From positions 133,362-197,361 of the forward strand of contig JAZQKK010000019.1 in the NCBI GenBank assembly GCA_045542115.1: a stretch of DNA of 64,000 nt. Reading direction: 5' to 3'. The notes beneath the pieces are model-generated. The model had not been told where the DNA came from, ran no database searches, and saw nothing but the letters and a program-made list of their open reading frames with translations. The stretch is from Eubacteriales bacterium (GTDB lineage Bacteria > Bacillota > Clostridia > Oscillospirales > UBA644). This document shows, piece by piece, positions 7,168 to 55,524 of the stretch. Position numbers and translations under genes: made by a program. Within the stretch, counting starts at the first letter, position 1; each line of letters starts with the position of its first letter.

Positions 7168-8046
7168 ATGAAATTATCTTCCATCCTTTCCCGGGACGTT
7201 CCGTCCCTGTCCTTTGAAGTCTTTCCCCCGAAGACCGACGCTTCTTTTGATACGGTGGAGTCCGCCGTTCATCAGATTGCGGCCTTGAAGCCGGCCTTTA
7301 TGAGCGTCACCTACGGAGCCGGGGGCGGCACCAGCCAATATACGCTGGATATTGCGAAAAAAATCAAAAAACACCACGGGGTCCCCACCCTGGCGCACTT
7401 GACCTGCGTCTCCTCCACCCGGCAATCGGTGGCGGCTCAGATTCAGGCGATGCGGGACGCGGGGATCGAAAACGTAATGGCTCTGCGGGGGGATATTCCC
7501 GAAGACCGGAAACACGAAGACCGTTCCCGGTGGGATTACCGGTACGCGGTGGAGTTGGTTCGGGAATTGAAGGAACAGGGATTTTGCATCGGTGCGGCCT
7601 GTTATCCGGAGATTCACCCGGAAAGCGTCAATCAGAAGGACGATATCCTTCGCTTGAAAGAAAAAGTGGAAGCCGGATGCGATTTTCTCACCACCCAAAT
7701 GTTTTTCGACAACAACCTTCTGTATAATTTCCTGTACAAAATTCGGGAAGCGGGCATCACCGTGCCGGTAGTAGCGGGAATTATGCCCATCACCAACGCC
7801 AATCAGGTGCAACGGGCGGTCTCCCTTTCCGGGTCGTTCGTACCCCAACGGTTCAAAGCCCTGGTAGACCGGTTCGGGACCGACCCGAAATCGATGAAGC
7901 AAGCGGGTATCGCCTACGCCACCGACCAGATCATCGACCTGTTTGCCAACAATATTTGCAACGTACACGTCTATTCGATGAATAACCCCGACGTGGCGAA
8001 AAAAATTCAGGACAACCTGTCGGATATTTTGGAGAGATCCCTATGA
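7168..8046 (+). CDS. metF: 5,10-methylenetetrahydrofolate reductase
   Basis: N-terminal SFEVFPPKT motif and a TYGAGG region. 292 aa. Translationally coupled (ATGA) to the downstream methionine synthase. Confidence 0.85.
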   Translation: MKLSSILSRDVPSLSFEVFPPKTDASFDTVESAVHQIAALKPAFMSVTYGAGGGTSQYTLDIAKKIKKHHGVPTLAHLTCVSSTRQSVAAQIQAMRDAGIENVMALRGDIPEDRKHEDRSRWDYRYAVELVRELKEQGFCIGAACYPEIHPESVNQKDDILRLKEKVEAGCDFLTTQMFFDNNLLYNFLYKIREAGITVPVVAGIMPITNANQVQRAVSLSGSFVPQRFKALVDRFGTDPKSMKQAGIAYATDQIIDLFANNICNVHVYSMNNPDVAKKIQDNLSDILERSL

Positions 8047-13080: not shown

Positions 13081-14078
13081 TTCGGGAACTCCAACCCCAA
13101 GTGGCGGCAAGCCGCCTCGGTGACACACCGTCCCCGTTGGGTGCGGACCAAGAACCCGATCTGCATCAAATACGGTTCGTACACGTCTTCAATGGTGACC
13201 GCTTCTTCTCCCACCATCGCCGCCAGGGTCTCCAATCCCACCGGACCGCCCCGGAACTGCTGCACCACGGCCGTCAGCATCCGGCGGTCTTGGGCGTCCA
13301 GGCCTAATTTATCAATATCCAACCGGCGGAGCGCCTCGTCGGCAATCTCGTCGGTAATCACGCCGTCCCCCAACACTTGGGCAAAGTCCCGCACCCGTTT
13401 CAGCAAGCGGTTTGCGATACGGGGGGTTCCCCGGGAACGGGAAGCAATTTCGTGGGCTCCCGCTTCGGTGATGCCGATATCCAAAATGGAAGCGGACCGT
13501 TTGACGATCTGCTCCAATTCTTCCACCTTGTACAGATCCAACCGCAAAAGCACCCCGAACCGGTCCCGGAAGGGGGAGGCCAACTGCCCGGAACGGGTGG
13601 TCGCCCCGATCAGAGTAAATTTCGGCAGGTCGAACCGAATGGAACGGGCGGACGGCCCTTTTCCCAAAATCACGTCGAATTCATAGTCTTCCATCGCCGG
13701 ATACAAAATTTCTTCCACCGTCCGGGAGAGGCGGTGAATCTCATCGATAAAGAGAATATCTCCCTCTTGCAGATTGGTCAGAAGGGCTACGATATCCCCG
13801 GCCTTTTCCAGGGCGGGACCGCTGGTGATCCGGATCGAGACCCCCATTTCCGCCGCCACGATGTTGGCAAGGGTGGTTTTCCCCAACCCCGGAGGACCAA
13901 AGAAGAGAATGTGGTCCAGAGCGTCGCCCCGCAGTTTGGCCGCTTCAATAAAAATGCGGAGATTTTCCTTGGCTTGTACCTGACCGATGTAATCGTCCAA
14001 CCGCTGAGGGCGAAGGTTTTCCGGGTCGTCGGACGGTTCAATGGTCCGGGTGGAAAGCAGTCGTTCATCAAATTCCAT
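13077..14078 (-). CDS. ruvB: Holliday junction branch migration DNA helicase RuvB
   Basis: Walker [12 protein letters not shown], Walker [10 protein letters not shown] and sensor regions. 333 aa. Confidence 0.95.
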
Positions 14079-27885: not shown

Positions 27886-27982
27886 TTGAAACCATTCTCC
27901 TTCTACGTGTCTTTTGAATTGTATTACAGTTCGTATACAATATCGTAGCCTGAATGTAAAATTCCCATTCAAGCCCGACTTC

Positions 27983-42868: not shown

Positions 42869-45037
42869 TTATTTGACTTCGGTGAGGTGGACTTTGAAGG
42901 TGGTGAAATCACCCATAATTTCAAGCCGGTTTACCCCGCCGTTCATCCACACGCTGCCGGGGCGGACGGTCCCGTCCTGGTCGGCGTACAATTTGTCCGG
43001 GTCAAGGCCGCGGAAATGAACCGTGCGCCGGCGAACCCGGGGACGGTTGTGGATGCACACGAAGGTCAGCAAGGCCTCGGACTTGTCTTCGGAAACATAG
43101 CACCAGGCACATTCTTCCCGGTTGGGGGGCAGGACCCGGTACAATTCCCCGAAATGAATCACGTCGTAATACTTGTGGTATTCCGCAATCTGACCTTTGA
43201 CCGCTTCTTTTTCTTCCTCGGACATCTTTGTCACGTCCAATTCATATCCGAACGACCCCGCCAAAGCCACGTCGCAACGGGTCTGCAAGGGGGTGATGCG
43301 GCCGGTCTGATGATTGGGAACGGCGGACACGTGAGAGGATACGGCAGAGGTAGGATAGCACATCGACGTGCCGTACTGAATATCCAGTCGGTCCATCGCG
43401 TCGGTATTGTCACTGGTCCAATATTGGGGAGAGTAATACAGCATCGCTGGGTCAAACCGTCCGCCGCCGGAAGCACATCCTTCCAAAAGCAGGTCGGGAT
43501 GGGCAGTCAAAAGCCGGTCGAGAAGGGCGTACAGCCCCAAAACGTACCGGTGGAAAATTTCCTTCTGCCGTTCGGGAGCAAGCAGGGCGCTGCCCACTTC
43601 GGTGAGATACCGGTTAAAGTCCCACTTAATGTATTCAATCCTGGCGTTTTTCATCACGTTGTCCATACAGTTGAACAGGTAATCCCGCACGTCGGGACGG
43701 GACATATCCAGAACGTACTGATTCCGGCTGGTACACATCGGACGGCCTTCTGCGTGCAGACACCAATCGGGATGGGCACGGTACAAATCACTGTCGGGGT
43801 TCACCATTTCCGGCTCGAACCACAGACCGAATTTCATTCCCAGGCCGTGGATACGGTGGGAGAGAAGCCCCAAACCGCCCTTTAATTTTTCTTCGTTGAC
43901 AAACCAATCCCCAAGCCCGGATTTATCGCTGTTCCGGGACCCGAACCAGCCGTCGTCGAGAACCAGCATCTCCACGCCCAGTTCCCCGGCTTGCTTGGCG
44001 ATGTTGTAAATCTTTTCTTCGTCGAAATCGAAATACGTGCCTTCCCAGTTGTTGATAAGAAGGGGGCGCTTGGCATTTTTCCAAGGGCCGCGGCAGAGAT
44101 TGTTTCGGTACAGTTTGTGGAAGGTCCGGCTCATTCCGCCCAAGCCGTCGGCAGAGAAGACAGCCACCGCTTCGGGAGTCTCAAAGGTCTTGCCCGGTTC
44201 CAGTTTCCAGCCGAAGTTGGTGGGGTTGATTCCCATAATCAGCCGCACGTCTCCGTCCACTTGCAGTTCGGTCTGAATGGAGAAGTTGCCGCTGTAAACA
44301 AAGTTAAAGCCGTAAGCCGCGCCTACGTCTTCGTTGGTGTCCTTGTCCACGAGGGCAACGAAGGGGTTGTGGTGGTGGCTCGACGCCCCTTCCAAACTTT
44401 CCACGGCGGTAATTCCGTGGATAAGGTCGGCCCGTTCGAAGTTCCGCTCTCTGCCCCATTCTCCGTACAGATGGCACAACTGCCAATTGCCGAAGGGCAT
44501 ATCCAGGCAAAGAGAGTAGGCCCGTTCGATATCCATCGTCTTGTCGGAAGCGTTTTCAATCACCGCCCGGCGGGTGATGGCGTCGTAGATTTCAAACACG
44601 GAATAGAACAACGTCACCTTCAAACCGGTCACTTTGTCTTCGGTCAATACTTCCAGGGTGGTCACTTCGTCTTCGGTACCGTAGGTGGCGGGCTGACCGG
44701 GAATGGCCGGCTTGCCGGGATAGATTTTATGGGAAACGTAGCGGATGTCCGTGGCGGCATCCCCCCAAGCGTTGCGAACTTGGAGGGCAGAGACCCGAAA
44801 ATCCCCCGTGCCGTTGCATCCGTATTCCAAAGCGGCGGTACAGGGCGACAAGGTTCCGTCGGCGGTCTTCGGGCCCCGGGCCAAACGACCGGAATACTCC
44901 CTCATATCACAAGGGGGAACCTTCGGCCCGTAATAATCGTGCAACAAAAATCCCCCATCGTTGATGTGAAACGCGTACGACGAGTTGGGGGTCGAAAGGT
45001 GAAAAGAACGAAATTCGTCCAAGAATTGAATGGGCAT
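42869..45037 (-). CDS. alpha-galactosidase, glycoside hydrolase family 36
   Basis: YIKWDFNRYL and LEGCASGGGRFD catalytic-region motifs, with the N-terminal MPIQFLDEF..FHLSTPNSSY pattern. Start set at the second ATG (45037), preceded by AAAGGAGA. Confidence 0.88.
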   Translation of the reverse strand: MPIQFLDEFRSFHLSTPNSSYAFHINDGGFLLHDYYGPKVPPCDMREYSGRLARGPKTADGTLSPCTAALEYGCNGTGDFRVSALQVRNAWGDAATDIRYVSHKIYPGKPAIPGQPATYGTEDEVTTLEVLTEDKVTGLKVTLFYSVFEIYDAITRRAVIENASDKTMDIERAYSLCLDMPFGNWQLCHLYGEWGRERNFERADLIHGITAVESLEGASSHHHNPFVALVDKDTNEDVGAAYGFNFVYSGNFSIQTELQVDGDVRLIMGINPTNFGWKLEPGKTFETPEAVAVFSADGLGGMSRTFHKLYRNNLCRGPWKNAKRPLLINNWEGTYFDFDEEKIYNIAKQAGELGVEMLVLDDGWFGSRNSDKSGLGDWFVNEEKLKGGLGLLSHRIHGLGMKFGLWFEPEMVNPDSDLYRAHPDWCLHAEGRPMCTSRNQYVLDMSRPDVRDYLFNCMDNVMKNARIEYIKWDFNRYLTEVGSALLAPERQKEIFHRYVLGLYALLDRLLTAHPDLLLEGCASGGGRFDPAMLYYSPQYWTSDNTDAMDRLDIQYGTSMCYPTSAVSSHVSAVPNHQTGRITPLQTRCDVALAGSFGYELDVTKMSEEEKEAVKGQIAEYHKYYDVIHFGELYRVLPPNREECAWCYVSEDKSEALLTFVCIHNRPRVRRRTVHFRGLDPDKLYADQDGTVRPGSVWMNGGVNRLEIMGDFTTFKVHLTEVK

Positions 45038-45070
45038 AGCCAATCTCCTTTTTTCCATATTTTACGATCT

Positions 45071-45145: not shown

Positions 45146-46555
45146 TTAAAACATCATATATTCCATAAACAGGTCGGAAAACAGTTTCTCTCCCGACAGG
45201 TCTACCGCCTCTGCCGAAGATAGAGGCAGCGGCAATGAACCGGAACAGGCGTATTGCACCGTTCCCGAAAGGCTTGCGTTGTTGACCCCGTGGAAGATTT
45301 CTTGCAATTCTTCGGGAATCAACCCCACGAAGGCGGCGCTTTTCACGTTCAGTCCGGCGGAGAATCCCCCCGCCACGTACAACCCGTCTACGGCGTCGTA
45401 AGAAATTCCCGCCTGATGCAAAAGACATTCCAGCCCTGCCCGGACGGCGGATTTGGCCAACTGAAATTCCCGGATATCCTTCCCCGTCAATTCCACGCCG
45501 GGGCAAAGGGGTAAGGGGTCTTCTTCCAAAAATCCGGTCTCGTCGATATCTTCTTCCCGGACGGCCCGGGCAACGGCGTCCACCAACCCGGTGGCACACA
45601 ATCCCTTGGCTTCGCCCCCGCCCAAGACCGTCACGTCCCCCTGGGGAGAGACGGCACAGACCGCTCCGTCGGAGGCACTCATCCCGCAAGAGATATTCGC
45701 CCCCTCGAAGCAAGGACCGGCGGCAGCCGCGGTGCAAAGGATACGGCGTTCGTTATAAAGGGCGATTTCCGCGTTGGTCCCCAAATCCAAAAGAATCCGA
45801 TATTTTCCGGAGGGCGGCATTCCCACGGCGTTGATGCCCGCCACGATGTCCGCCCCCACAAAGGCGGAGATCCCGGGCAGAGCGGTGACGGTGTTCACTT
45901 GGAAAAATCCCAAATCTTCCCCCGGCACGGTGCGGAAATCCAAAAAGGCGGGGGTATAGGGAGCCACCCCCAGAGATGCACAGTTTTCCCCAAAGAAGAG
46001 ATGGAGCATCGTGGTGTTCCCCGCCACGTACATCGTCTCCACCGAAGAAAGGGCGAAGGGAGACAGTAAGCGGAAGGTCAATTCTTTGATTCGTTCCAGC
46101 AAAACGTTTTGCAGAGACTCCGGTCCGTTTTTGGCGCAATGGGCAATCCGGGAAATGACGTCTGCCCCGAAGACCCGTTGAGGGTTGGGGGCGGTCACGG
46201 TGCGAATCACCGCATTTTCATCCAAAGAGACCAACGCCAGGGCCAGGGTGGTCGTCCCGATATCCAGGCAGAGGCAGACCCGTTCGGTCAGCCGCCCCGT
46301 CTCGGCCCCCGCAGTGACCGAAACCAGGTTTTCTTTTTCGGGAAGAATCACTTCCCCATCCCCGGAAAGCATCGTACGGCAGGCCAAAACCGGACTGCCG
46401 TTTAACAAGACCGTACATTTTTTACAGGTCCCCCGCCCCCCGCAGGGATGGGGCACAAAATAGCCGTTATCGGCTAAAATTTCGCTGAGAAGCCGGGGAG
46501 ATTCCACCGAAATCTCCCTTGTTGTTCCGTTTTGAAGGACGGTTAATCGTAACAC
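45146..46555 (-). CDS. RACo-like reductive activator of corrinoid proteins (2Fe-2S ferredoxin domain + ASKHA/DUF4445 ATPase)
   Basis: GTG start with RBS GGAAGGAG. N-terminal PCGGRGTCKKCTV...LAC ferredoxin motif, then a sugar-kinase/actin-like fold pattern (LDIGTTT, LDLGTNAE). Confidence 0.75.
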   Translation of the reverse strand: MLRLTVLQNGTTREISVESPRLLSEILADNGYFVPHPCGGRGTCKKCTVLLNGSPVLACRTMLSGDGEVILPEKENLVSVTAGAETGRLTERVCLCLDIGTTTLALALVSLDENAVIRTVTAPNPQRVFGADVISRIAHCAKNGPESLQNVLLERIKELTFRLLSPFALSSVETMYVAGNTTMLHLFFGENCASLGVAPYTPAFLDFRTVPGEDLGFFQVNTVTALPGISAFVGADIVAGINAVGMPPSGKYRILLDLGTNAEIALYNERRILCTAAAAGPCFEGANISCGMSASDGAVCAVSPQGDVTVLGGGEAKGLCATGLVDAVARAVREEDIDETGFLEEDPLPLCPGVELTGKDIREFQLAKSAVRAGLECLLHQAGISYDAVDGLYVAGGFSAGLNVKSAAFVGLIPEELQEIFHGVNNASLSGTVQYACSGSLPLPLSSAEAVDLSGEKLFSDLFMEYMMF

Positions 46556-46559
46556 GGCG

Positions 46560-47117
46560 TTACTCCTTCCATAAAAGCAGGCCGAAATAGGTCACGGTGT
46601 CGGCTCCGTTGATGTATTTCATCGACGTATTTTTCACCGTGGCACTTACGTTGATTCCATAGGCTTCCAAGGAGGAGATGGCTTTGTCCGGAAACCGGCA
46701 AGGCAGATTTTCCCGTTTGGAGCAGGTGGGACAAACGCCGCATCCCCCCTTGGACAGATGGAGATACTCTCCCCATCCCGCCTCTTTGAGCAGGCGGTCC
46801 AAGGCTTGACTTCGTTGGCTTTGCTCCCGGCCGGCGTCTTGCATCCCCTCAAAATCAAAACTGTCTTCCAGGGGAAAGACCGATTGATAGAGAAATCCTC
46901 TGGAATAAGATTGCACCTGGGCAATCAGTTGGTCAATCTCTCCCACGTCCGGAGGGCACATCCAACATTTTCCGTAAACGCCGCAGGCGTTTGCTTCGCA
47001 TTGCCCCCGAAACCGCCGGTCGCAGACGATTTGGGAAACGTCAATCACTTCACCGTTGGTGCACCCCACGGATTTTGCCAAGGCGACAAGGTCTGTATTT
47101 GCAAAATCAGTTTTCAT
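46560..47117 (-). CDS. DUF2284-family Cys-rich metal-binding protein
   Basis: 185 aa. CEANACGVYGKCWMCPP and GGCGVCPTC motifs. This family typically accompanies corrinoid methyltransferase genes. Confidence 0.65.
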   Translation of the reverse strand: MKTDFANTDLVALAKSVGCTNGEVIDVSQIVCDRRFRGQCEANACGVYGKCWMCPPDVGEIDQLIAQVQSYSRGFLYQSVFPLEDSFDFEGMQDAGREQSQRSQALDRLLKEAGWGEYLHLSKGGCGVCPTCSKRENLPCRFPDKAISSLEAYGINVSATVKNTSMKYINGADTVTYFGLLLWKE

Positions 47118-48111
47118 AAAATTCCTTCACCGCCCCGAAAAAGGCGTCCAAATTTTCCCACGGAGTGGCCGGGGGAACGTCGCAGCCGGAAGAAACGGTA
47201 AAGTTTTCGTATCCGGCGCATTTTTCCAGCAGTTCCAACGTCTTTGCCCGCACGGTGTCGGGGTCGGACATCCGCAGAATCCCGGCGGGGTCCACGTTTC
47301 CCATTACGGGAAGGTCTTTGGGGAAGGTGTCCAGCATTTCTTTCAAATCAATGGAGTTGCCGAAGTGGTATCCGGCGGCTCCGATGGACGCAATGGAATC
47401 GGCCATCCGAATCACGTTGTCGCCGCAGTTGTGATAAATCAAAAGATACGAATCGTCTTGCACCGCGTCTACGATTTTCTTCATATAGGGGGCGGAAAAT
47501 TCTTCTTCCAGGGCGGGGGAAAGAAGTCCCGCCACCGGCTCTGCCACCATAATGCCGTCGGCACCGGCGGCCTTGAAGGCTTTGGCGTATTCCACCAAAA
47601 ATTCCGTGGCCTTTTCCAACACGGTGTGGACCATATCCGGCTCGTCGTAGCAGTCCATCATAATTTCCGATACGTCCAACAGGCGGGCGGCCAGAGAAAA
47701 CGGTCCAATCATTCCGGCGAAGACCGGCTTGTCGGTGATTTGAGACACCGCCTTGGCAATGGCTTGCACGTAAAGCCCGGAACGGCCATCCCCCACCCTG
47801 GGGACGGGAAGAGCCTCGGCGCCTTCTTCGTCTTCCACCAAACGGCCGGTGACGGTGGGAACTTCATCGTCGGAAAAGCGGACGGCGGCCCCGAAACATT
47901 CCGCTTCCACGGAAAGGTCCATAAAACCGATGGCGGCGGCGCTGTCGCCACGGTTTGCCACCAAAACCATCCCTTTCGCCTGCTTGTCGCTGTCGAAAAT
48001 CAGTTCTTTCACGGTGCATCCCAGCAACGAAATGCAGGGAAAGGACAAAATGGGAAAGGCTTTTTTCGATTGGGGAAGGTTTTGCAACCACTCTCGCATA
48101 TTTTTCTTCAT
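47107..48111 (-). CDS. URO-D / MtaA-CmuA-family methyltransferase, paralog 4 (classical HxC...C zinc pattern)
   Basis: 334 aa TIM-barrel pattern. YHNCGD (HxC) and SSGCDVPP. RBS AAAGGAAAAGGA. Confidence 0.7.
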   Translation of the reverse strand: MKKNMREWLQNLPQSKKAFPILSFPCISLLGCTVKELIFDSDKQAKGMVLVANRGDSAAAIGFMDLSVEAECFGAAVRFSDDEVPTVTGRLVEDEEGAEALPVPRVGDGRSGLYVQAIAKAVSQITDKPVFAGMIGPFSLAARLLDVSEIMMDCYDEPDMVHTVLEKATEFLVEYAKAFKAAGADGIMVAEPVAGLLSPALEEEFSAPYMKKIVDAVQDDSYLLIYHNCGDNVIRMADSIASIGAAGYHFGNSIDLKEMLDTFPKDLPVMGNVDPAGILRMSDPDTVRAKTLELLEKCAGYENFTVSSGCDVPPATPWENLDAFFGAVKEFYEN

Positions 48112-48123
48112 ATCCTTTTCCTT

Positions 48124-48354
48124 TCAAGAATTATTCCCCGTAATAGGCGTCCAAGACTTCGGGAACGGTCTTCGCCCGGACCATCCGGTTTTCGGGGGAG
48201 GTGTGACGGTGGGGACTTGAATCAAATCAACGCTTTCTACGGCTTCCAACACGTCTTCCAAGGGGTTCAAACCGCGTGTCTGCCTGAAAATACTTCCGGA
48301 GGACAGACCGGGTCCTCCCGTTGCGTTATCATAAAAATACTTACTTAAAATCAA
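48124..48354 (-). other. 239-nt gap holding a doubtful TTG-start ORF; possible frameshifted remnant
   Basis: Only ORF in the gap. Its last third is Pro/Gly/Trp-rich junk. The +1 frame after a C5 run (about 48195-48199) instead reads ENRMVRAKTVPEVLDAYYGE and stops at 48131. Confidence 0.25.
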
Positions 48355-49421
48355 TACTTCCCTAATTTGTGGGCCAGGTCGGAGATTTGCTTCATCGTGT
48401 CCAAAGAAACGGAGTTGGGAATGGAATGGTCGGAAGCGAAGACGTAGCCGCCCCCTTGTTTCATCATCGGAAGGATGCGCTCCATTTCCGCCAACACCAA
48501 CTCCGGCTTATCCCACAGTTGGGCATTGATGCCCCCGTGGAAGGCCAATTTGTCCCCATAGGTCTCTTTCAGTTTTTTCGGGTCCATTCCCGCTTTGATT
48601 TCCAGGGGATTGAGCATATCCAACCCGATATCCACCAAATCACCAATCAACGGTTCAACGTAACCGCAAGAGTGCAGTTCCGCGAACATTCCCCGTTCGT
48701 GGGCCCAATCGATGGCCTTCTTGTGAAAAGGCTTCAATAGTTCCCGATAGGTTTCGGGAGAAAAGAAGGGAGCCCCTTTATACCCCATATCGTCCCACCA
48801 GAAAATGCCGTCGAATTGATAGCCGGCATCCAGAATCTTCTGGGCCTGACGCAGCGTTGTCGTCAGATAGGTATCCACCACGTCGGTAAACCATTCGGGT
48901 TCGTCCAACATTGCCACCAACACGTTTTCCGTGCCAATCATATGGGAATGGGCCACGTCAAAACCGAACCACAGATTCAGCTGACGGTACCGCTGTTCTT
49001 TCTCCCAGATAGGATAACTTCGCTTTAACCCGGCCCAGTCGATGCGGTCTTCTGCGTCGGCAAGCATCCGGGCCTTGGCTTCCTCCCAACGGTCGGAGTC
49101 ACAGTAATAACAATCCAACACTTCGGGGGTGGAATCCAATTCCTTGAACACCTTTTGGGTCTGTCCCCATTTGGTGGTGATGATACGATAGCGGTCGGTC
49201 TCTTCCAATACCTTGTATTCAAAGCGGGGAGAATTGTCGGGGAGCGTGTTGCTGATCTTATCGAAGCCGAAATAATCCTTCCAATCTACGTCAGCGGGCA
49301 TTCCTTCCCGTTTCCAACGGGCGACGGTTCCGCCCCAAGCGGAATCAATCATCATCAACCGGTCCACTTCCTGGTGGCGGAAGGTACGAAGCATACGTTC
49401 TCTTGAAGTCAATTCTTTCAT
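48351..49421 (-). CDS. URO-D / MtaA-family methyltransferase, paralog 3
   Basis: Start moved to the ATG at 49421 (RBS AAGGGAG). MKELTSRERMLRTFRHQEVDR N-terminus typical of the family. AELHSCGYV. Confidence 0.7.
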   Translation of the reverse strand: MKELTSRERMLRTFRHQEVDRLMMIDSAWGGTVARWKREGMPADVDWKDYFGFDKISNTLPDNSPRFEYKVLEETDRYRIITTKWGQTQKVFKELDSTPEVLDCYYCDSDRWEEAKARMLADAEDRIDWAGLKRSYPIWEKEQRYRQLNLWFGFDVAHSHMIGTENVLVAMLDEPEWFTDVVDTYLTTTLRQAQKILDAGYQFDGIFWWDDMGYKGAPFFSPETYRELLKPFHKKAIDWAHERGMFAELHSCGYVEPLIGDLVDIGLDMLNPLEIKAGMDPKKLKETYGDKLAFHGGINAQLWDKPELVLAEMERILPMMKQGGGYVFASDHSIPNSVSLDTMKQISDLAHKLGKY

Positions 49422-49425
49422 AGGA

Positions 49426-50394
49426 TTACTCCCTTGCAAGATTGTAAATCAAATCAAAGGCAAATTCCAGGTCTTCCACGGTACAGTGGTCCTGAACGAA
49501 GTGGGAGGTGCAACAAACCCAACGCTTGCCTTTCAGGATCGAAAAGACCCGGCGGATTTCCGATTCCAGTTTGTCTTGGGGCAGAATCCCCAGGACAGAC
49601 TGGACGCAGATTCCGCCCAGCGTTGCAAATTTATCCTGATATTTTTCTAAGTAGAGTTCGTAGGGCATATTGGCATTTTCCTGCCAGGGGTGAATCAAGT
49701 CAAACCCTATGTCCACAATGCCGTCCAGCACTTTTGCCACACAGCCGTCGGAGTGCAAAGACGCCAAAACGCCCCGGGAGTGAACGTGGTCCACGACTTT
49801 TTTCAGATTGGGATAAATCAAATCCCACCAAACCTCGGGGGAGAACATCAAATCTTTCTGGGAACCCCAGTCGTCGGAGATGTGAATCATATCCGCGCCG
49901 GCGTCGATGCTCTGGTCGGCGCATTGAATCACCCAATCGGCGTGCCGGCGGTACAGTTCCGCCATTTCATCGGGGTACATCAGAAGCCACGCCAGGTGGT
50001 CTTCGATTCCGAAGGCACCGTTGAAACATTCAAAGAATCCGGGGGTCTGCATATAACAGAACCGACCCCGCTGCTTGTGAAAAGCGATGGATTTTTTGAT
50101 ATTTTCGAAAGTCTCTTCGGTCTTGGGGGGCAGATAATAATCGTGTTCCAGCAAAACGTCGGGGGAAACTTCGCCGTTTTCTTCCCGAATCTGCTCCAAC
50201 ACTTCTTGTTTGAAGACGCGAGGGCCGCCGAAAATGTGGGCAGCGTCGAATTCGTAGTGGTCTTCAAAGGCCTCCACAGAGCCCCATTTTTCGGTAATCT
50301 GCTCTTCCAGATTCGCCCGGACCCAGCCATAGATGGGCTGACGGTCCACAGGCTTGCCAAGAATGGCATTGCGCACGCGTTCGGTACTGTTCAT
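49426..50394 (-). CDS. URO-D / MtaA-family methyltransferase, paralog 2
   Basis: Start at the ATG at 50394 (RBS AAGGAG). MNSTERVRNAILGKPVDRQP N-terminus. SLHSDGCV. Confidence 0.7.
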   Translation of the reverse strand: MNSTERVRNAILGKPVDRQPIYGWVRANLEEQITEKWGSVEAFEDHYEFDAAHIFGGPRVFKQEVLEQIREENGEVSPDVLLEHDYYLPPKTEETFENIKKSIAFHKQRGRFCYMQTPGFFECFNGAFGIEDHLAWLLMYPDEMAELYRRHADWVIQCADQSIDAGADMIHISDDWGSQKDLMFSPEVWWDLIYPNLKKVVDHVHSRGVLASLHSDGCVAKVLDGIVDIGFDLIHPWQENANMPYELYLEKYQDKFATLGGICVQSVLGILPQDKLESEIRRVFSILKGKRWVCCTSHFVQDHCTVEDLEFAFDLIYNLARE

Positions 50395-50413
50395 CCTCAA
50401 AACTCCTTGTTAG

Positions 50414-51943
50414 TTAAGCATTTTTGCACAATGCAACGGCGGCGTCGGCGGCGGAAGCGGCGTCAACGGTATAGCAGTCCGCTCCGATGGCTTCGCAGAA
50501 TTTCTGATTGACGGGAGCGCCTCCAATCATAATCTTCACACGATCCCGGATACCGGCGGCTTCGGCGGCCTTGACCACGTCGGCCATTACGTCCATCGTG
50601 GTGGTGAGAAGGGCGGAGCAGCAGATAACCTGGCAGCCCTGTTCTTTGGCGGTCTGCACGAAGGTTTCCGCGGGAACGTCGGTGCCAAGGTCGATAACTT
50701 CCAGGCCCTTGCCTTCCATCATCATTTTTACCAGGTTTTTACCGATGTCGTGCAGGTCGCCCTGTACCGTACCGATACAAACTTTACCGGCGGATTCCAC
50801 GCCGCTGGAAATCAGGTGGGGTTTGAGCACGGTGATACCCATATTCATCGCCCGGGCCGCGACGAGAACTTCGGGAACGTAAACTTCGTTGTTCTTGAAT
50901 TTTTCCCCAATAATCCCCATTCCGGCCAAGAGGCCTTCTTCCAGAATCTTGGCAGGTTCGCATCCTTCGTCGATGGCCTGCTGGACCATTTCTTTTACGA
51001 TTTTGCCTTTGCCTTTTTGCAGTTGTTCGGAAATTTCGCTCAGAATAATCATAATCTTTTCTCCCTTCGATTCAAACGAATGTTTTTCATTATATTGATT
51101 CCGATATTGAATCGGAGTCATTTCCGCATAGGTATGAAAACTGCGGTAAAAGGACGGCAGGTCCCGAAGTCCACACTCTTCCATAATCCGGTTGACCGAC
51201 CAATCGGTCTGTTGTAACAGGGTACACGCGTGGGCCATTCGCCGTTCCCGAAGATAATCGGAAAAGGTCTTCCCCACCGCGGTCTTAAACAGCCGGCTCA
51301 GTTGGGATTGGCTGACGAACCGTTGTTCTGCCACCGTTTCCAGAGTCAGCGTCTCGGAAGAAAATTCCTCGTTGACCGTTTGCAAGACCGATTGTACCAG
51401 GGCCTTTTCTTTGCCTTTGACGGCGGAATCGTTGCGAATCGCCCCGTTCATATACCGGGTCAGGGTAATCAGCAACACCGAAAGGTACGCGGAGGTGGCC
51501 TCGGCCCAGTCGGAGCGGGATTGCTCCACTTCCTTGGCAATGCCGTCGAACAGAACGAACACCTCGTTCAGCGTGTCCCGGTTCAGGGTGGCGTAGCAGA
51601 CCGTCGCCCCTTCGCAGAACACCCCGTAGCAAAACCGGGGGCGGTCTTCGTTGCCCAAATCCCCGCTCAGGAATACCTTGGGGTCAAAAAGGATGCGCCG
51701 CACTTCCGGGCCCGGCCCCTCTTCCCCTTCGTAACCGTGGGGGGTGTGGGGGGCAATGACGCACAGATCCCCTTCGTTGCAGGGGATGGCTTGGTTCAAA
51801 ATCCGGTGGATGCCGTTGCCGGCGACCACAAGGTCAATCTCCACCCAACCGCCGGGATACAACCGGGCGGCGGTACGGTCCGCCCACCGAACCGTTTCGG
51901 TCAGGATGGGCCCCGCCGTGGCATACGTTTTCTTCCCGTCCAT
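50414..51943 (-). CDS. AraC-type regulator (cupin + double HTH, aa 1-~295) in frame with a complete MtaC/MtbC-like corrinoid-binding protein (aa 298-509)
   Basis: Single 509-codon ORF. The HTH ends ...MTPIQYRNQY. The corrinoid part begins at the internal ATG 51052, which has its own SD (AAGGGAGAAAAGATTATG). It carries GDLHDIGKNLV (DxHxxG), SALLTTTM and IMIGGAP. Confidence 0.75.
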   Translation of the reverse strand: MDGKKTYATAGPILTETVRWADRTAARLYPGGWVEIDLVVAGNGIHRILNQAIPCNEGDLCVIAPHTPHGYEGEEGPGPEVRRILFDPKVFLSGDLGNEDRPRFCYGVFCEGATVCYATLNRDTLNEVFVLFDGIAKEVEQSRSDWAEATSAYLSVLLITLTRYMNGAIRNDSAVKGKEKALVQSVLQTVNEEFSSETLTLETVAEQRFVSQSQLSRLFKTAVGKTFSDYLRERRMAHACTLLQQTDWSVNRIMEECGLRDLPSFYRSFHTYAEMTPIQYRNQYNEKHSFESKGEKIMIILSEISEQLQKGKGKIVKEMVQQAIDEGCEPAKILEEGLLAGMGIIGEKFKNNEVYVPEVLVAARAMNMGITVLKPHLISSGVESAGKVCIGTVQGDLHDIGKNLVKMMMEGKGLEVIDLGTDVPAETFVQTAKEQGCQVICCSALLTTTMDVMADVVKAAEAAGIRDRVKIMIGGAPVNQKFCEAIGADCYTVDAASAADAAVALCKNA

Positions 51944-51953
51944 ACTTCACCGT

Positions 51954-53072
51954 TCAGAATGTAATCTTTTTCATCTCTTCCGCGTAATACTGTACCAATT
52001 CAAATTTGGTGCCGGGCATCAGACGATGGTCCGGGCAGGGGATAAATCCGCCCAAAGAGGCCAGCCGCTGCATCCGTTCCAATTCTTGGTCCACCGCGGC
52101 TTTGTCTTTGCGAAGAGCCGTCTTATCCATTCCGCCCACGCCCAACATTCCCTTGCCGAACTTGTTCCGGGCGGCTTCGAATTGGTCGCCCCACGTTCCT
52201 ACTTCGATGGGGAACATCGTGTTGACTCCGTTTTCAAACCAGGTGGGCAACAGCGCTTCGGTCACCCCGTCGCAGTCGAGGGAGATAACGTCAATGCCGT
52301 ATTGCCGGAACAGGGCGTTGCGTTTTTCATAATGCTTTGCGCACAGTTCGTCAAAGATTCCCGGTGCAATCAGCGGTCCGTTCTTAAAGCAGATGTCTTC
52401 CCAATAATGGGCAAAATCGAATTTCGCCCCGGTCTCCAACACGGCCTTCACACATTGATATTGCATTTCCGCGTAAGTGTCCACAATATCCGCAAACAAC
52501 GCTTCGTCTTCGTCGTAGAGAAGATAACTCATCCCCACCACCGAAGTCATATTCCGGATATCCCCAAGAATACTTCCCGCACTCAGCCCCACGGGGACGT
52601 CCCAGGGACGGGTGTCGTTGAAGGTTTTCCAATATTCCATATCGATGCGGTCGGGCGTGAACTGCATTTTGGGGAGATACAATTCTTCAAAAGCCTTACG
52701 GTCTTTCAACTGATAGTCGTCTTCCGAAGGAATGGATTGGTTTCCCGGCTTTTGCCGTTCAATCAGCCCCAGGGAATTCTGAATCCGTTGCGTCCCGTCG
52801 GGGAAGGTCTCCAACACTTTGGTCTCAAAGAGAGGGCGAAGACGTTTGTCTGCTCCCCGGCAACGGTACCAGTTAAAGTCCCAGCCGATGATTTTGTCCA
52901 ATTCCCGGTCGGCGTCGTTGCCGTCCCCCCAGGCTTTGGCCAAATCCATCGAAATCTTACCTTGCTCTGCCCACTCCAACAACAACTCGTTCCAATACCC
53001 GAAATGTACGGCAGGCATCCGGTCAGCAGGCTGATAGTGAAGAATGTTCATCGCACGCTCCCGATTGGTCAT
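51954..53072 (-). CDS. URO-D / MtaA-family methyltransferase, paralog 1 (most divergent)
   Basis: RBS GAGGAG. MTNRERAMNILHYQPADRMP N-terminus. 372 aa. First gene of the operon. Confidence 0.65.
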   Translation of the reverse strand: MTNRERAMNILHYQPADRMPAVHFGYWNELLLEWAEQGKISMDLAKAWGDGNDADRELDKIIGWDFNWYRCRGADKRLRPLFETKVLETFPDGTQRIQNSLGLIERQKPGNQSIPSEDDYQLKDRKAFEELYLPKMQFTPDRIDMEYWKTFNDTRPWDVPVGLSAGSILGDIRNMTSVVGMSYLLYDEDEALFADIVDTYAEMQYQCVKAVLETGAKFDFAHYWEDICFKNGPLIAPGIFDELCAKHYEKRNALFRQYGIDVISLDCDGVTEALLPTWFENGVNTMFPIEVGTWGDQFEAARNKFGKGMLGVGGMDKTALRKDKAAVDQELERMQRLASLGGFIPCPDHRLMPGTKFELVQYYAEEMKKITF

Positions 53073-53115
53073 AGCACACGCTCCTCATCTAAAATCTTTT
53101 ATGTTCTATGATATC

Positions 53116-53144
53116 ATTGTACCAAAAATAAAATGGATTGTAAA
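53116..53144 (-). promoter_or_regulatory. promoter of the corrinoid methyltransferase operon
   Basis: Minus strand: TTTACA (53144-53139), 17 nt spacer, TGG-TACAAT (53121-53116), about 45 nt upstream of the start codon. Confidence 0.6.
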
Positions 53145-53253
53145 TAGGGTTTTCTTTCCGTTTTTAACTTTTTTTCGAAAGAAAACCAAAGTCGCCGTTC
53201 TTTTCTCGGTTTTCAGCAGACTGTTTTCCTATTATATTGATGGGGAAAACCGC

Positions 53254-53498
53254 AAAAAAATTCGGCACCTCCGGAAAGACCACCGGAAGTGCCGATATTG
53301 ATAAAATAATATCCGGCTCTTTGGGGGGAACAAAGAGCCGGATGCAGTCGGCGGAGAGGGGCCCGCCGAGATTGTTTTATGAGAATCCACCAACCTTGTC
53401 GCGAAGACGCGGGAATCCATAAAACAATAAAGGAGAGAGTGGGCTGCGTTCCCACTACCGAATAAGCGTTTTTCCCCGGAAATAGGGGGAATTTTTAT
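53254..53498 (-). ncRNA. candidate stand-alone structured RNA (~200-245 nt), family not recognised
   Basis: Lies between a perfect consensus promoter (53505-53533) and two successive hairpin terminators. The first is the 13-bp stem ATCCGGCTCTTTG/CAAAGAGCCGGAT at 53311-53343, followed by AUAUUAUUUUAU. The second is GGCACTTCCGG/CCGGAGGTGCC at 53264-53293, followed by U7. Internal helices include AGTGGG/CCCACT, ATTGTTTTATG/CATAAAACAAT, CGCG/CGCG and CGGCGG/CCGCCG. No RBS-preceded ORF. Confidence 0.5.
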
Positions 53499-53504
53499 GG
53501 CATT

Positions 53505-53533
53505 ATTATAGCACAGGGGGATAAAAATGTCAA
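53505..53533 (-). promoter_or_regulatory. perfect consensus sigma-A promoter driving the candidate RNA
   Basis: Minus strand: TTGACA (53533-53528), 17 nt spacer, TGC-TATAAT (53510-53505). Confidence 0.7.
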
Positions 53534-53736: not shown

Positions 53737-54504
53737 TCAGTGGGGGAGAAAACCAACGTGGTTAAAATCCTTGTGATTGTGGCGGATGATGTAATCGGTA
53801 TAGGACAGTATCATCTTTGCCGTCAAGGCGTATCCCATCGGATTCATATGACCGTTCAGGAAGAACTTTTCCCGGAAGGCCTCGTCGTAACAAGGGGCGT
53901 AGCGATGCAGGTCAATCACGTAGCACCCGTCGAATTTCTTTGCAATTTCGTAGAGCAGTTCCGTAATTTTTGCTCCCTGCTCCGTCCACTCGGGCTTTTT
54001 GTCCCTGGGGGGCGCAATCAAGAACAGTTTTGCTCCCGGGGAGATTTCCCGATACCGTTGAAGAATCGTTCCGTAGCGGCCGGCGAAGGTTTCGGGATTG
54101 TTGTCGTGCCAATCCTCTTTTACGTCATCGGCGGTGCCCAATTGCTGATGGCAATTGAAAATATCGTTCACCCCAAGGGCAACGTAGTAGGCTTGGCATT
54201 TCAACTCCGGATTCCAGAACCCCTTTTCGTCTGCAAAGGTATCCAGATACCACTTGCAAGTCATTCCCCCCCGGGAGAAATTATAAACCTTGCTCCCGGT
54301 GGTCCGGGCCATAAACTGCCCCCAGGAATACTCGTACATATCGTAGTATCCTCTACTGCCGTCTTCTTTGAAAATCTCAAATTCTCCGGAAGAAAGGCTG
54401 TCGCCCACACAGGCTACCGTGCGAAAGATGGAGCAAAAGCCGCCGTCGTCCACCAAGCGGTCCAGGGGCTGTTCCTTTTCGTCAAAATAATGCATCCAAT
54501 CCAT
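53737..54504 (-). CDS. SGNH/GDSL-family hydrolase
   Basis: Block I VACVGDSLSSGE and a block V-like C-terminal DxxH region (NGHMNPMG). 255 aa. Confidence 0.75.
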   Translation of the reverse strand: MDWMHYFDEKEQPLDRLVDDGGFCSIFRTVACVGDSLSSGEFEIFKEDGSRGYYDMYEYSWGQFMARTTGSKVYNFSRGGMTCKWYLDTFADEKGFWNPELKCQAYYVALGVNDIFNCHQQLGTADDVKEDWHDNNPETFAGRYGTILQRYREISPGAKLFLIAPPRDKKPEWTEQGAKITELLYEIAKKFDGCYVIDLHRYAPCYDEAFREKFFLNGHMNPMGYALTAKMILSYTDYIIRHNHKDFNHVGFLPH

Positions 54505-54540
54505 TCTGTTCTCCTGAATATGTTAAAATGCTTTTTTCGA

Positions 54541-55524
54541 TTAACCTTCCATTCCTTCCAGCACACCCAAAAGGATGATACCGGCAATGGCAAGACCCAC
54601 GGCGCAGTAATGTTTCCAGGACAGTTTTTCTTTCAGGAAAATGCGGCTCCACAGGACGCTTGCCACACAGTAGGCGGAAATAATGGGGGCAGACATTGCC
54701 ACGTGCTCCGTATCGGCCAGCGCGTAGATGTAGGCAAATTGTCCGGCGGTCTCAAACACACCGCCCAGGAAGCGGGGCGCGGCCTTTTTCGGTCTTTGCA
54801 GGTCGTTTTTCGCCCACAGATACACCAAACAACCGATGGCGGCGACCAAGAAGGTCAATTCATAGGCAACGTTGGCGCTGTCTTCGTTCAACCCCTGCAC
54901 GAATCCTTGCAGGAAACCGGGGATTCCCCCCATCGTTTCCGGGTCGGCGGGGTCGGCAAGCACCAGAGAATCCGCAAAAGACCCCAGCGCGTCCAGCAAG
55001 CAATAGGCGATGGGCAAGCACAGGGCGAGCCAGGATTTGGCATACTTCCGATTGGATTTTTCCTGACGGCGGGCCCGCAGTTCTTCGTCTTCCGTGGCTT
55101 CCACCACACCCAGAGCAATGACCCCGAGGCAAATCAAGACGATGGCAACAATCTGCAACGCCGAGATTTCCGCCATTCCCATCACGATGCACAACACCGC
55201 AACCAAGGCGCCGCTGCAATTACAGATGGGGGAGGAAATGGAAAGTTCAATATACCGAAGCCCCACGTATCCCAGCACCATAGAAAATATGTAAAGAAGG
55301 GAGACGGGGAGATAGGCCAAAAGTACTTGGGGAGTAACAACAACGCCGCCAAAAATAATTTCGTACAGAGCGTGTACCCCCATAATGGTACCCACCGCGA
55401 TGACCATCCGCAGATGGGCGTGTTTATCGTTTTGTTCAGAGCAACCGATTTTGGAGAACAAATCCGACCCGCTCCAACAGAACAAAGCCAATAAGGCAAA
55501 TACAAACCAAGACATAAAATACAC
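54541..55524 (-). CDS. EamA/DMT-superfamily transporter
   Basis: 10-TM pattern with a duplicated EamA-like half. N-terminal FALLALFCWSGSDLFSKIG. Confidence 0.75.
   Translation of the reverse strand: MYFMSWFVFALLALFCWSGSDLFSKIGCSEQNDKHAHLRMVIAVGTIMGVHALYEIIFGGVVVTPQVLLAYLPVSLLYIFSMVLGYVGLRYIELSISSPICNCSGALVAVLCIVMGMAEISALQIVAIVLICLGVIALGVVEATEDEELRARRQEKSNRKYAKSWLALCLPIAYCLLDALGSFADSLVLADPADPETMGGIPGFLQGFVQGLNEDSANVAYELTFLVAAIGCLVYLWAKNDLQRPKKAAPRFLGGVFETAGQFAYIYALADTEHVAMSAPIISAYCVASVLWSRIFLKEKLSWKHYCAVGLAIAGIILLGVLEGMEG

Follow-up and report, generated by a model that had tools for sequence, protein, structure and literature searches.

A predicted corrinoid methyl-transfer operon with four divergent URO-D paralogs and an AraC-fused corrinoid protein belongs to a module widespread in gut Clostridia

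An uncharacterised gene module of gut Clostridia

We analysed a 64,000-nt stretch of the genome of a member of Eubacteriales (contig JAZQKK010000019.1), referred to below as the window, in which positions 45146–53144 of the minus strand are occupied by an operon of seven genes. In the order of transcription, these encode a protein of the URO-D superfamily (P1), a corrinoid protein fused to an AraC-type transcription factor, three further URO-D paralogs (P2, P3 and P4), a DUF2284 protein and a RACo-like activase. Judging from its domain content, this is a corrinoid methyl-transfer operon, and it represents one copy of an uncharacterised module that is widespread in gut Clostridia. No publication on this module turned up in literature searches. 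These genes occur together in dozens of other genomes as well, and their clustering is far beyond chance. All seven open reading frames (ORFs), which an interpretation of the DNA made before any database search (hereafter, the sequence-only reading) had listed in this order, are intact, and their domains were confirmed with Pfam and NCBIfam. The tight packing claimed at the same time is found at all junctions but one: from P1 to the activase gene, the intergenic distances are 10, 13, −14, 239, −11 and 4 nt (the DUF2284 gene overlaps P4 and ends 4 nt before the activase gene), the exception being the 239-bp gap between P3 and P4. As had been read by eye, a domain scan of the operon found, besides a corrinoid carrier and a RACo-type activase, none of the methyltransferases of the MttB, MtaB or pterin type; the four URO-D paralogs, which are highly divergent from each other (pairwise identity 18–31% or undetectable by blastp), are the only methyltransferase candidates in the operon.

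The distribution of the module was surveyed in the best 80 of 434 P1-related stretches of species-representative genomes (individual loci are denoted by L and a number). Module genes were counted by tblastn and our own gene calls, and statistics on neighbouring genes come from a purpose-built codon-log-odds caller trained on core genes. The hosts are Acetatifactor, Eisenbergiella, other Lachnospiraceae, Oscillospiraceae, Acutalibacteraceae and metagenome-assembled genomes of Ruminococcaceae, from the guts of ruminants, mice and humans. Further core genes are found beside P1 in at least 58 of the 80 loci. Among 58 such module loci, P4 is present in 43, RACo in 40, DUF2284 in at least 30, a P3-like gene in 30 and P2 in 19; P1, the carrier, P4 and RACo occur together in 32 loci within the sequence available. 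The minimal form of the module, exemplified by Acetatifactor aquisgranensis, consists of the AraC–corrinoid fusion, P4, P1, DUF2284 and RACo. Since this minimal form contains exactly P1 and P4, it would provide one substrate:corrinoid methyltransferase (MT-I) and one methyl-corrinoid:acceptor methyltransferase (MT-II), which makes plausible the earlier suggestion that both half-reactions are carried out by the paralogs, although the MT-II could also be encoded elsewhere. Paralogs of the P2 and P3 types and of two additional types, of 354 and 408 aa, come and go between genomes and for this reason may be regarded as alternative MT-I enzymes; such gain and loss is the behaviour expected of interchangeable, substrate-specific MT-I enzymes.

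The copy of the module in the window has itself lost genes. In its closest relatives (L005–L007 and L009), intact genes for proteins of 354–366 aa and 408 aa lie between P3 and P4; the pair occupies, for example, positions 13826–16174 of L005. In the window, the 354-aa-type gene is entirely deleted and the 239-bp gap between P3 and P4 is the deletion scar of a lost 408-aa-type gene, not a regulatory spacer, because tblastn with the L005, L006 and L007 sequences as queries revealed three collinear fragments of this gene (aa 85–99, aa 129–153 and aa 388–408), the last of which comprises the final 21 codons (ending in VPEVLDAYYGE) and the stop codon. An internal promoter in the gap was also considered and rejected, as the gap is a gene relic and the sole promoter-like match overlaps the start of P4. 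Neither additional type has a Pfam match at the gathering level. The 408-aa type weakly matches P4 (6e-5), and the 354-aa type reaches 13 bits against URO-D and 3e-4 against OdmB; both probably represent additional barrels that have diverged extremely. Hence, as many as six URO-D-like genes were present in the ancestral cluster. The 408-aa type is found in at least eight loci (besides L005–L007 and L009, also L012, L039, L050, L068, L077, L079 and L082).

Table 1. Features of the operon and its surroundings in the 64,000-nt window
Feature	Position	Strand	Length	Characteristics
P1	51954-53072	minus	372 aa	Pfam URO-D 31.5 bits, C-terminal half only
AraC–corrinoid fusion	50414-51943	minus	509 aa	AraC_binding cupin, HTH_18/HTH_AraC, B12-binding_2 cap, B12-binding Rossmann domain
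P2	49426-50400	minus	324 aa	Pfam URO-D 66.8 bits
P3	48351-49439	minus	362 aa	Pfam URO-D 66.5 bits
Relic of 408-aa-type paralog gene	48112-48350	minus		tblastn fragments
P4	47107-48111	minus	334 aa	Pfam URO-D 201.7 bits, full length
DUF2284 protein	46560-47117	minus	185 aa	Pfam DUF2284 156 bits
RACo-like activase	45146-46555	minus	469 aa	Fer2, Raco_middle, RACo_C_ter
Sigma-70-like promoter of the operon	53116-53144	minus		TTTACA-17-TACAAT, TG extended -10; consensus scan 10/12
Palindromic operator-like element	53148-53187	minus	40 bp	ends 3 nt upstream of the -35 hexamer
Promoter of GH36	45100-45071			TTGACA-18-TATAAT (perfect)
GH36	42869-45058
Structured RNA region	53255-53533	minus	~245 nt (RNA)	promoter TTGACA-17-TATAAT (perfect) at 53533-53505
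Intrinsic terminators of the structured RNA	53343-53311 and 53295-53262
GDSL/SGNH esterase and EamA transporter	53737-55524	minus
Large Metallophos-domain proteins	25393-27972 and 36412-41781			some with ricin or CBM35 modules
MTHFR	7168-8046	plus
Short MetH	8043-10421		792 aa	overlaps MTHFR; Hcy-methyltransferase, pterin, B12-cap and B12 domains

The predicted corrinoid carrier is fused to a putative AraC-type regulator

The second gene of the operon encodes a protein in which a cupin sensor and a dual helix-turn-helix (HTH) region are followed by a helical B12 cap and a Rossmann B12 domain with the sequence D-L-H-D-I-G, matching the DxHxxG signature. The Pfam scores of the N-terminal half (HTH_18 73.6 bits, HTH_AraC 58.2 bits, AraC_binding 25.5 bits) correspond to the AraC/XylS arrangement of two HTH domains and a cupin, and a fold search matched this half to ToxT and Rns. 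The C-terminal half (residues 305–498) covers the full model TIGR02370 (pyl_corrinoid) with 200.7 bits, just below its cut-off of 215.3, and the fusion scores 211.6 bits against the NCBIfam family MtgC; both the structure and the DxHxxG motif are consistent with a place in the TIGR02370 family. In the fold search, MttC was the closest match of the B12 half (41–42% identity, template-modelling (TM) score 0.81–0.84), followed by MtmC, the Desulfitobacterium hafniense corrinoid protein 4JGI (30% identity) and MtaC, whereas identity to photoreceptor (CarH-like) B12 domains is 20–21%. The AlphaFold2 (AF2) model has confidently predicted domains with no fixed inter-domain packing (predicted TM score 0.40).

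The carrier is fused to the AraC half in 28 related loci and is a stand-alone protein of ~210 aa in 26. The B12 half from the window is 70–88% identical to that of other fusions and 56–81% identical to the stand-alone carriers, and in 27 of the 28 fused loci the fusion is the only corrinoid protein of the cluster. Within the fusion, the corrinoid half is conserved at 77–82%, the cupin at 41% and the HTH region at 48%. The family comprises 4834 proteins at E ≤1e-10, of which the top 120 without exception share this four-domain architecture and are annotated only as ‘cobalamin-dependent protein’ or ‘HTH domain-containing protein’; no AraC–B12 fusion is described in the searchable literature. Because of its MttC-like B12 half, the DxHxxG motif and its orthology to stand-alone carriers, we conclude, by sequence comparison, that the fusion is a methyl carrier. 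Its AraC half makes it, in addition, the putative regulator of the operon.

P4 is related to MtaA and MecE

For comparison of the paralogs with characterised enzymes, we used the set in Supplementary Data 3 of PMC13222342 (CdmB, MtoB, MtvB, OdmB from two species, VdmB, CmuA, MecE, MecC and UroD), which also includes paralogs from Acetobacterium dehalogenans. All four proteins of the operon pass the URO-D profile cut-off of 23.9 bits, with P1–P3 matching only the C-terminal half of the model. P4 stands apart from the rest. It matches the structure of Methanosarcina MtaA (PDB 4AY7) with an E-value of 1.3e-21, its YHNCG and SSGCD segments corresponding to LHICG and APGCG in MtaA, and each of the His, Cys and Cys zinc ligands of the His-x-Cys...Cys pattern is at least 95% conserved in 43 orthologs. 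In the blastp comparison, P4 hit MecE (23% identity, 9e-21) and MecC (2e-13), and the URO-D score of MecE (171 bits) is similar to that of P4. The scores against the NCBIfam models PRK06252 (methylcobalamin:CoM methyltransferase; 161.7 bits) and mtaA_cmuA (132.7 bits) are below the respective cut-offs of 244 and 235.4, which by these profiles makes P4 a relative, not a member, of the curated MtaA-type subfamily. P4 is the predicted MT-II of the module.

P2 and P3 resemble O-demethylases

Orthologs of P2 and P3 have 322 aa and 356–357 aa, respectively, and versions with TTG starts are absent from the protein collection; hence, the likely true starts are ATG codons at 50394 (P2) and 49421 (P3). 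P2 is most similar to the A. dehalogenans paralog WP_026394102 (33%, 1e-19), VdmB (31%, 5e-17) and OdmB (29%, 3e-13), and P3 to WP_026394102 (34%, 5e-26), VdmB (27%, 2e-20) and OdmB (26%, 1e-17); in addition, P3 aligns over its full length with WP_026394596 (24%, 2e-25). The strand motif SDDWGSQKD of P2 aligns with HDDWGSQ in OdmB and its L-H-S-D-G with H-H-S-D-S, whereas L-H-S-C-G in P3 aligns with Q-H-T-C-G in VdmB. OdmB and VdmB score 62 and 59 bits against URO-D, in the range of P2 and P3. Among themselves, the paralogs share 31% identity between P2 and P3 (in the C-terminal half), 21% between P1 and P3, 19% between P1 and P2, and essentially nothing between P1 and P4. The sequence-only reading had named tight clustering with characterised methoxy-aromatic O-demethylases as the outcome that would speak against a divergent system. 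Such clustering was not observed: the best identities are 25–34% over partial lengths, and in a crude, unbootstrapped neighbor-joining tree P1, P2, P3 and P3-like proteins form deep clades of their own beside the OdmB/VdmB group, with P4 apart.

The earlier reading of the metal sites by eye also held up, with P4 being the only paralog to have H-x-C...C. At the H-x-C position, P4 has H-N-C, MecE H-M-C, CmuA H-T-C, P3 H-S-C and VdmB H-T-C, whereas both P2 and OdmB have H-S-D and P1 has D-C-D (D-S-D in its family). At the position of the third ligand, P4, MecE and CmuA have G-C-D/E, P3 has S-D-H, P2 T-S-H, P1 P-D-H and UroD L-G-H; taken together, the sites read HSC...DH in P3, HSD...SH in P2 and DCD...DH in P1. 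In the URO-D superfamily, S-methyltransferases keep His-Cys-Cys and O-methyltransferases swap Cys for Asp or Glu (PMC10418091). Because of the OdmB/VdmB motifs in P2 and P3, the carboxylates and His at the ligand positions of P1 and the similar URO-D scores, P1–P3 appear to be on the ether-cleaving side of the superfamily. All of its characterised O-demethylating members act on aryl methyl ethers (PMC13222342), which, together with the motif matches, leads us to rank methoxy-aromatics first as putative substrates of P2 and P3. These two proteins are, accordingly to their motifs, candidate accessory MT-I enzymes, P2 being OdmB-like and P3 VdmB-like.

P1 is the most conserved component of the module

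P1 has over 5000 homologs, the top 120 of which are 76–87% identical to it. It is the signature gene of the module and, with 75–87% identity across loci, its best-conserved member, compared with 46–82% for P4, 32–70% for RACo and 37–73% for DUF2284. A sequence search of P1 against the PDB gave no match (P2 and P3 gave almost none), and among the characterised enzymes blastp found OdmB alone (25%, 1e-6). A profile built from 60 sequences of the wider P1 family reached UroD (1e-7) and MtaA (4e-4). The AF2 model (predicted local distance difference test score 95.3) has the (beta/alpha)8 barrel of the UroD/MtaA type; a Foldseek comparison with the PDB placed it equidistant from UroD and MtaA (TM score 0.62–0.65), with MetE next. 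Most of the nearly invariant residues in this family carry a charge or are Trp (W27, W34, R142, R173, D219, E225, D226, D266, D268, E290, K317, D348 and H349), and of these D266, D268, D348, H349, E225, D226 and E290 are located at the H-x-C...C positions and nearby. These charged, Trp-rich invariant residues and the extreme conservation argue for a polar, common compound as the substrate of P1, which is the predicted MT-I of the module.

In seven loci with at least 5 kb of sequence on both sides, P1 is found alone, its neighbours being iPGM, TldD/PmbA, thioredoxin reductase and fumarase. These solitary orthologs (L041, L049, L053, L054, L056, L064 and L066) are 76–78% identical to P1 and have no carrier, P4 or activase within 5–10 kb. 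Either their partners are encoded at other places, or the role of P1 does not depend on the module.

Predicted activation proteins

The last gene of the operon encodes a protein with the Fe–S, middle and ASKHA domains of RACo (Raco_middle 136.9 bits, RACo_C_ter 156.7 bits), each scoring above its Pfam cut-off. It scores below the cut-offs of the NCBIfam equivalogs of the AcsV type (245.9 bits, cut-off 800) and the RamA type (134.9 bits, cut-off 500); by domain composition, it is a RACo/RACE-type ATP-dependent reductive activase of corrinoid proteins. The DUF2284 protein encoded immediately upstream has eight conserved Cys residues in two blocks, C..N.CG....W.CPP and GGC..C..C......C. Literature searches found neither a published function for DUF2284 nor anything on its occurrence in corrinoid clusters. 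This Cys-rich, metal-binding protein probably assists in activation.

A palindrome abuts the conserved promoter

The promoter that had been proposed ahead of the seven genes was located as a sigma-70-like site at that position (Table 1). The position of its −35/−10 pair is conserved in an alignment of orthologous upstream regions, and a GAGGAG Shine–Dalgarno sequence precedes the ATG of P1. Directly upstream of the promoter lies the palindrome GGTTTTCTTTC-N18-GAAAGAAAACC (53187–53148). The same palindrome is found ahead of the first cluster gene in L005, L007, L008, L009, L031 and L039, and changes in its inner part are mirrored in both arms (CTTTC/GAAAG, CTCCC/GGGAG, GTTTC/GAAAC, CATTC/GAATG and CTTGC/GCAAG). 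A looser composite motif has 17 matches in 2.4 Mb of the loci, 16 of which are located 55–111 nt upstream of the first module gene, including loci with an unfused carrier. Thus, the palindrome is a module-specific, operator-like element. L027, L028 and L045 likewise have the conserved element (GGTTTTGTTGC...ACC-ATATT) ~100 nt ahead of P1, and in these clusters the corrinoid protein is unfused and no AraC gene is found on the short contigs; since the element is kept there, the regulator of these clusters may be encoded elsewhere in the genome.

The AraC half of the fusion is the putative ligand of the palindrome, whose two 20-bp half-sites abutting the −35 box would fit a dimer of an AraC-family class II activator. 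The binding site of RhaS is likewise directly upstream of, or overlaps, the −35 box. For MtaR of Eubacterium limosum, a similar inverted-repeat site at or overlapping the −35 box has been proposed (PMC13602510).

Control of the operon by a riboswitch or leader was considered and rejected, as there was no Rfam match in the 41–58 kb part of the window or in the intergenic region and no tRNA. In the stretch that separates the GDSL esterase gene from the promoter of the operon, another, perfect sigma-70 promoter precedes a strongly structured RNA (minimum free energy −100.8 kcal/mol, z = −7.4) that ends in two intrinsic terminators. Neither an Rfam family nor a tRNA nor a convincing ORF was found in this RNA, which may represent an uncharacterised small RNA or an orphan leader.

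Comparison with known corrinoid systems

The operon follows the same four-part logic as the Odm/Vdm systems of A. dehalogenans, the Dhaf O-demethylase, MtvABC of Moorella thermoacetica and MtoABCD of Methermicoccus, in which a URO-D-superfamily MT-I is combined with an MtaC/MttC-type corrinoid protein, an MT-II and a RACE/RACo activase. Both a corrinoid protein with DxHxxG and a RACE/RACo activase are present. The likeness to Odm/Vdm extends to the DDWGSQ and H-S-D motifs shared by P2 and OdmB, the H-x-C-G shared by P3 and VdmB, the URO-D scores (59–67 bits) and the presence of several alternative MT-I paralogs per carrier. In the O-demethylase systems of acetogens, the MT-II belongs to the pterin-binding tetrahydrofolate (THF) methyltransferase family. 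Such an enzyme is absent from the operon and from the neighbours of the 80 loci, and the MT-II candidate of the operon is instead an MtaA/MecE-like URO-D protein. Furthermore, the carrier of the module is fused to AraC, DUF2284 is added, and the gut Clostridia that host it are not known to be acetogens.

Type 1 mlp clusters, described in anaerobic Firmicutes including gut species and with a largely unestablished function (PMC10418091), are alike in combining a corrinoid protein with a Ram/RACE activase and in having no H4folate methyltransferase in the cluster. However, their Mlp2 and Mlp3 proteins both have invariant His-Cys-Cys, which in the operon is found in P4 alone, with P1–P3 on the O-demethylase side; moreover, type 1 clusters have a sulfur/selenium context, whereas the neighbours of the module are glycan-related and its carrier is often fused to AraC. 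The methanogen systems, consisting of MtaA, MtbA or MtsA with MtaC or MttC and RamA, share with the operon the match of P4, including its Zn ligands, to MtaA and that of the carrier half to MttC (41%). They differ in that the activase of the operon is of the bacterial RACo type with a 2Fe-2S domain rather than RamA and that P4 is below the subfamily cut-offs; to our knowledge, coenzyme M is not expected in these bacteria. Among the halomethane systems (CmuA/CmuB, the mec cassette with MecE/MecC, and CdmBCA), MecE and MecC are the best characterised bacterial matches of P4. In CmuA, a URO-D methyltransferase domain is fused to the corrinoid domain, whereas the carrier of the operon is fused to a transcription factor; a halomethane context is absent here, and CdmB-type MT-I is not close to any of P1–P4.

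The AraC half of the fusion has its counterparts in AraC activators of operons for sugar use and methylotrophy, such as RhaS/RhaR and MtaR (PMC13602510), which have the same combination of a cupin-type sensor and a dual HTH, but no AraC regulator described in the searchable literature has a C-terminal corrinoid protein. CarH and LitR, in turn, combine a transcription factor with B12-binding_2/B12-binding domains, as does the fusion; their DNA-binding part is MerR rather than AraC. The fusion has neither a MerR domain nor a photoreceptor-type B12 domain, and its context is one of methyl transfer and an activase.

Genomic surroundings

The operon is indeed located in a glycan island, as the sequence-only reading had it. 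The proteins encoded in the island are GH127, GH116 with LacI, a GH2 of 1842 aa, GH36, a CBM35 protein, a Metallophos/ricin protein, a further Metallophos protein of 1789 aa and AraC regulators. The promoter of its own that had been ascribed to GH36 is present (Table 1), and there is no terminator between GH36 and the RACo stop. The idea, based on the adjacency of GH36, that the substrates are O-methylated sugars or cyclitols was not borne out by the related loci, as GH36 does not adjoin the module at any of the 80; a conserved link to GH36 was therefore rejected. Only the GH116–LacI pair of the window recurs, at L005 alone. Elsewhere, the directly co-oriented neighbours vary but are often glycan-related. 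They include GH2 (five Acetatifactor loci), GH116, GH28, GH32 (two) and GH78, a sulfatase, altronate dehydratase and Metallophos proteins, as well as an ABC sugar transporter and, three times, an MFS_2/GPH transporter. Genes for sulfur or selenium metabolism or aromatic catabolism are not prominent among the neighbours of the 80 loci. Since glycosidases and GPH-type sugar transporters recur beside the module, its link to plant glycoconjugates is plausible. Rhamnosidase, beta-glucosidase, glucuronidase and esterase neighbours would suit the deglycosylation of methoxylated flavonoid or lignan glycosides and of feruloylated wall polymers, but are equally compatible with methylated sugars.

Several further features of the window and the related loci can be mentioned. 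Besides the large Metallophos-domain proteins of the island, Metallophos proteins are encoded directly upstream of the module at L059 (5714–7249) and L084 (5672–7258). A GDSL/SGNH esterase and an EamA transporter are encoded just upstream of the operon and are separated from it by a terminator, the structured RNA and two more terminators; the 80 other loci do not have this pair next to the module. Finally, 35 kb from the operon, the window contains, on the plus strand, MTHFR and a short MetH, which has no reactivation domain. MetH has the only pterin-binding domain in the window and, besides that of the carrier, the only corrinoid-binding domain, which is 34% identical to the carrier.

Proposed mechanism and alternatives

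We propose that the operon encodes a self-contained corrinoid demethylase of the O-demethylase type whose second methyltransferase is MtaA/MecE-like, because an MT-I, a corrinoid protein, an MT-II and an activase are all present and translationally coupled. This overall scheme has, in our estimate, an even chance of being correct, and each of its specific assignments a smaller one. The analysis establishes the gene content, the domain architecture, the metal-site motifs, the folds and the conservation of both the module and the cis-element; what we infer are the direction of methyl flow, the division into MT-I and MT-II, the substrate class, the acceptor and DNA binding. P1, with P2 and P3 as accessory enzymes, would act as the substrate-specific MT-I, transferring the methyl group of an O-methyl compound to Co(I) of the AraC–corrinoid carrier. 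The substrates would most likely be methoxylated plant phenolics freed from glycoconjugates by the flanking glycosidases and esterases. P4, with its His-Cys-Cys zinc site, would then serve as the MT-II and take the methyl group over from CH3-Co(III); its acceptor would be a soft nucleophile, probably a thiol such as homocysteine or sulfide, so that the methyl sink would not be THF via a pterin-type enzyme, as it is in acetogens. The RACo-like ATPase would re-reduce accidentally oxidised Co(II) to Co(I), probably assisted by the DUF2284 protein, and the AraC half of the carrier would bind the 40-bp palindrome at the −35 box and control the operon.

Several observations weigh against this scheme. 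The unusual conservation of P1 and its solitary occurrence in housekeeping loci would fit a ubiquitous substrate better than a niche plant compound. P4 could work on the donor side, the actual MT-II being encoded at another locus, as is the case for MtqA in E. limosum, and no gene for a thiol acceptor or sulfur metabolism is linked to the module in the neighbour families of the 80 loci. The similarity to OdmB and VdmB on which the comparison with O-demethylases draws is just 25–34% identity, mostly in the C-terminal half, and the tree, with its deep branches, is unbootstrapped. Finally, the copy of the module in the window has lost two paralog genes.

His-Cys-Cys enzymes of the URO-D superfamily may also be MT-I, as exemplified by MtsA, CmuA and MecE (PMC13222342). 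All four paralogs might accordingly work on the donor side as MT-I enzymes, P4 using a methyl-thiol or halomethane, and the MT-II would be encoded elsewhere, e.g. as a pterin-type methyl-corrinoid:THF enzyme or MetH. E. limosum does split the genes for MT-I, carrier and MT-II between loci, MecE and CmuA, the nearest characterised relatives of P4 besides MtaA, are MT-I enzymes, and MetH and MTHFR are encoded in the window. However, P4 is found in the module as constantly as the carrier and the activase, unlike the other, variable paralogs, which is the pattern expected of a shared MT-II, and no pterin-type methyltransferase was seen among the neighbours in the 80 loci; this arrangement is therefore unlikely, though with a chance worth keeping in mind. 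The presence of MTHFR and MetH in the window and the His-Cys-Cys site of P4, typical of S-methyltransferases, could also be taken to point to a sulfur/selenium function like that suggested by type 1 mlp clusters, in which P4 would act on thiols or selenols and the other paralogs on related substrates, in methionine salvage or selenium recycling. Yet three of the four paralogs lack the site that both defining proteins of type 1 clusters have and are O-demethylase-like instead, no sulfur, selenium, MarHDK or methionine genes were found among 179 + 63 neighbour families, and the supplement of PMC10418091 names no Acetatifactor, Eisenbergiella, Lachnospiraceae or Oscillospiraceae. We regard this function as improbable.

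The substrates could also be different from those favoured above, with the MT-I paralogs demethylating O-methylated sugars, uronic acids or cyclitols (4-O-methyl-glucuronate, 2-O-methyl-fucose or -xylose, pinitol) supplied by the surrounding glycoside hydrolases. The glycan island and the co-oriented glycan genes of other loci (GH2, GH116 with LacI, GH28, GH32, GH78, sugar transporters and altronate dehydratase) would be in place for this, the charged and Trp residues of P1 suit a polar substrate, cupin sensors of AraC proteins commonly bind sugars, and the niche is open, as literature searches found no corrinoid sugar O-demethylase. On the other hand, GH36 never adjoins the module elsewhere, and the GH families that do are heterogeneous and abundant in these genomes anyway. 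Moreover, the characterised O-demethylating URO-D enzymes, whose motifs P2 and P3 share, all use aryl methyl ethers (PMC13222342), an alkoxide is, on chemical reasoning, a much poorer leaving group than a phenolate, and in seven loci P1 stands among housekeeping genes. Methylated sugars are thus quite unlikely to be the main substrates. A last question concerns the fusion, which might be a cobalamin- or light-sensing transcription factor only, similar to CarH, with the true carrier encoded elsewhere. Regulators of the CarH/LitR type do use B12-binding domains as sensors, and the DNA-binding half of the fusion is complete. Its B12 half, however, is far closer to MttC than to photoreceptor domains and much more conserved than the AraC half, it is orthologous to the stand-alone corrinoid proteins found at the same place in sister clusters, and 27 of the 28 fused clusters, all with an activase and methyltransferases that need a corrinoid protein, have no other. 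Given a B12 half of the carrier type and this orthology, we consider a sensor-only role very improbable.

Implications for gut Clostridia

In the gut, corrinoid-dependent O-demethylation has until now been ascribed to a small number of acetogens, among them Blautia and Eubacterium limosum, and its substrates include dietary lignans and flavonoids, drugs such as etoposide, and 3-methoxytyramine. Hundreds of species-level genomes carry the module described here; they belong to Lachnospiraceae, Oscillospiraceae and Acutalibacteraceae and come from ruminants, mice and humans. The products of the module have only generic annotations there, such as ‘uroporphyrinogen decarboxylase family protein’ and ‘cobalamin-dependent protein’. 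A more far-reaching possibility, which we regard as doubtful, is that the fusion is a carrier doubling as a transcription factor, which would sense the state of its cobalt (apo, Co(II) or CH3-Co(III), the latter meaning that substrate is flowing) and respond through the 40-bp palindrome. The module would then serve O-demethylation of plant glycoconjugate-derived compounds, possibly including methylated sugars, in non-acetogenic gut Clostridia, with the methyl group passed to a thiol by the MtaA-like enzyme and without the Wood–Ljungdahl pathway. With regulator and carrier fused in some genomes and split in the other half, it is feasible to test whether a carrier loaded with its cofactor can sense flux, and two organisms with the module are in culture, Acetatifactor aquisgranensis DSM 110981 and Eisenbergiella porci. 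If the module is indeed an O-demethylase with a thiol-type methyl sink, more gut organisms would be able to demethylate compounds from diet and drugs, the module would be a predicted source of methylated sulfur compounds, and fibre-degrading Clostridia would have an added demand for B12.

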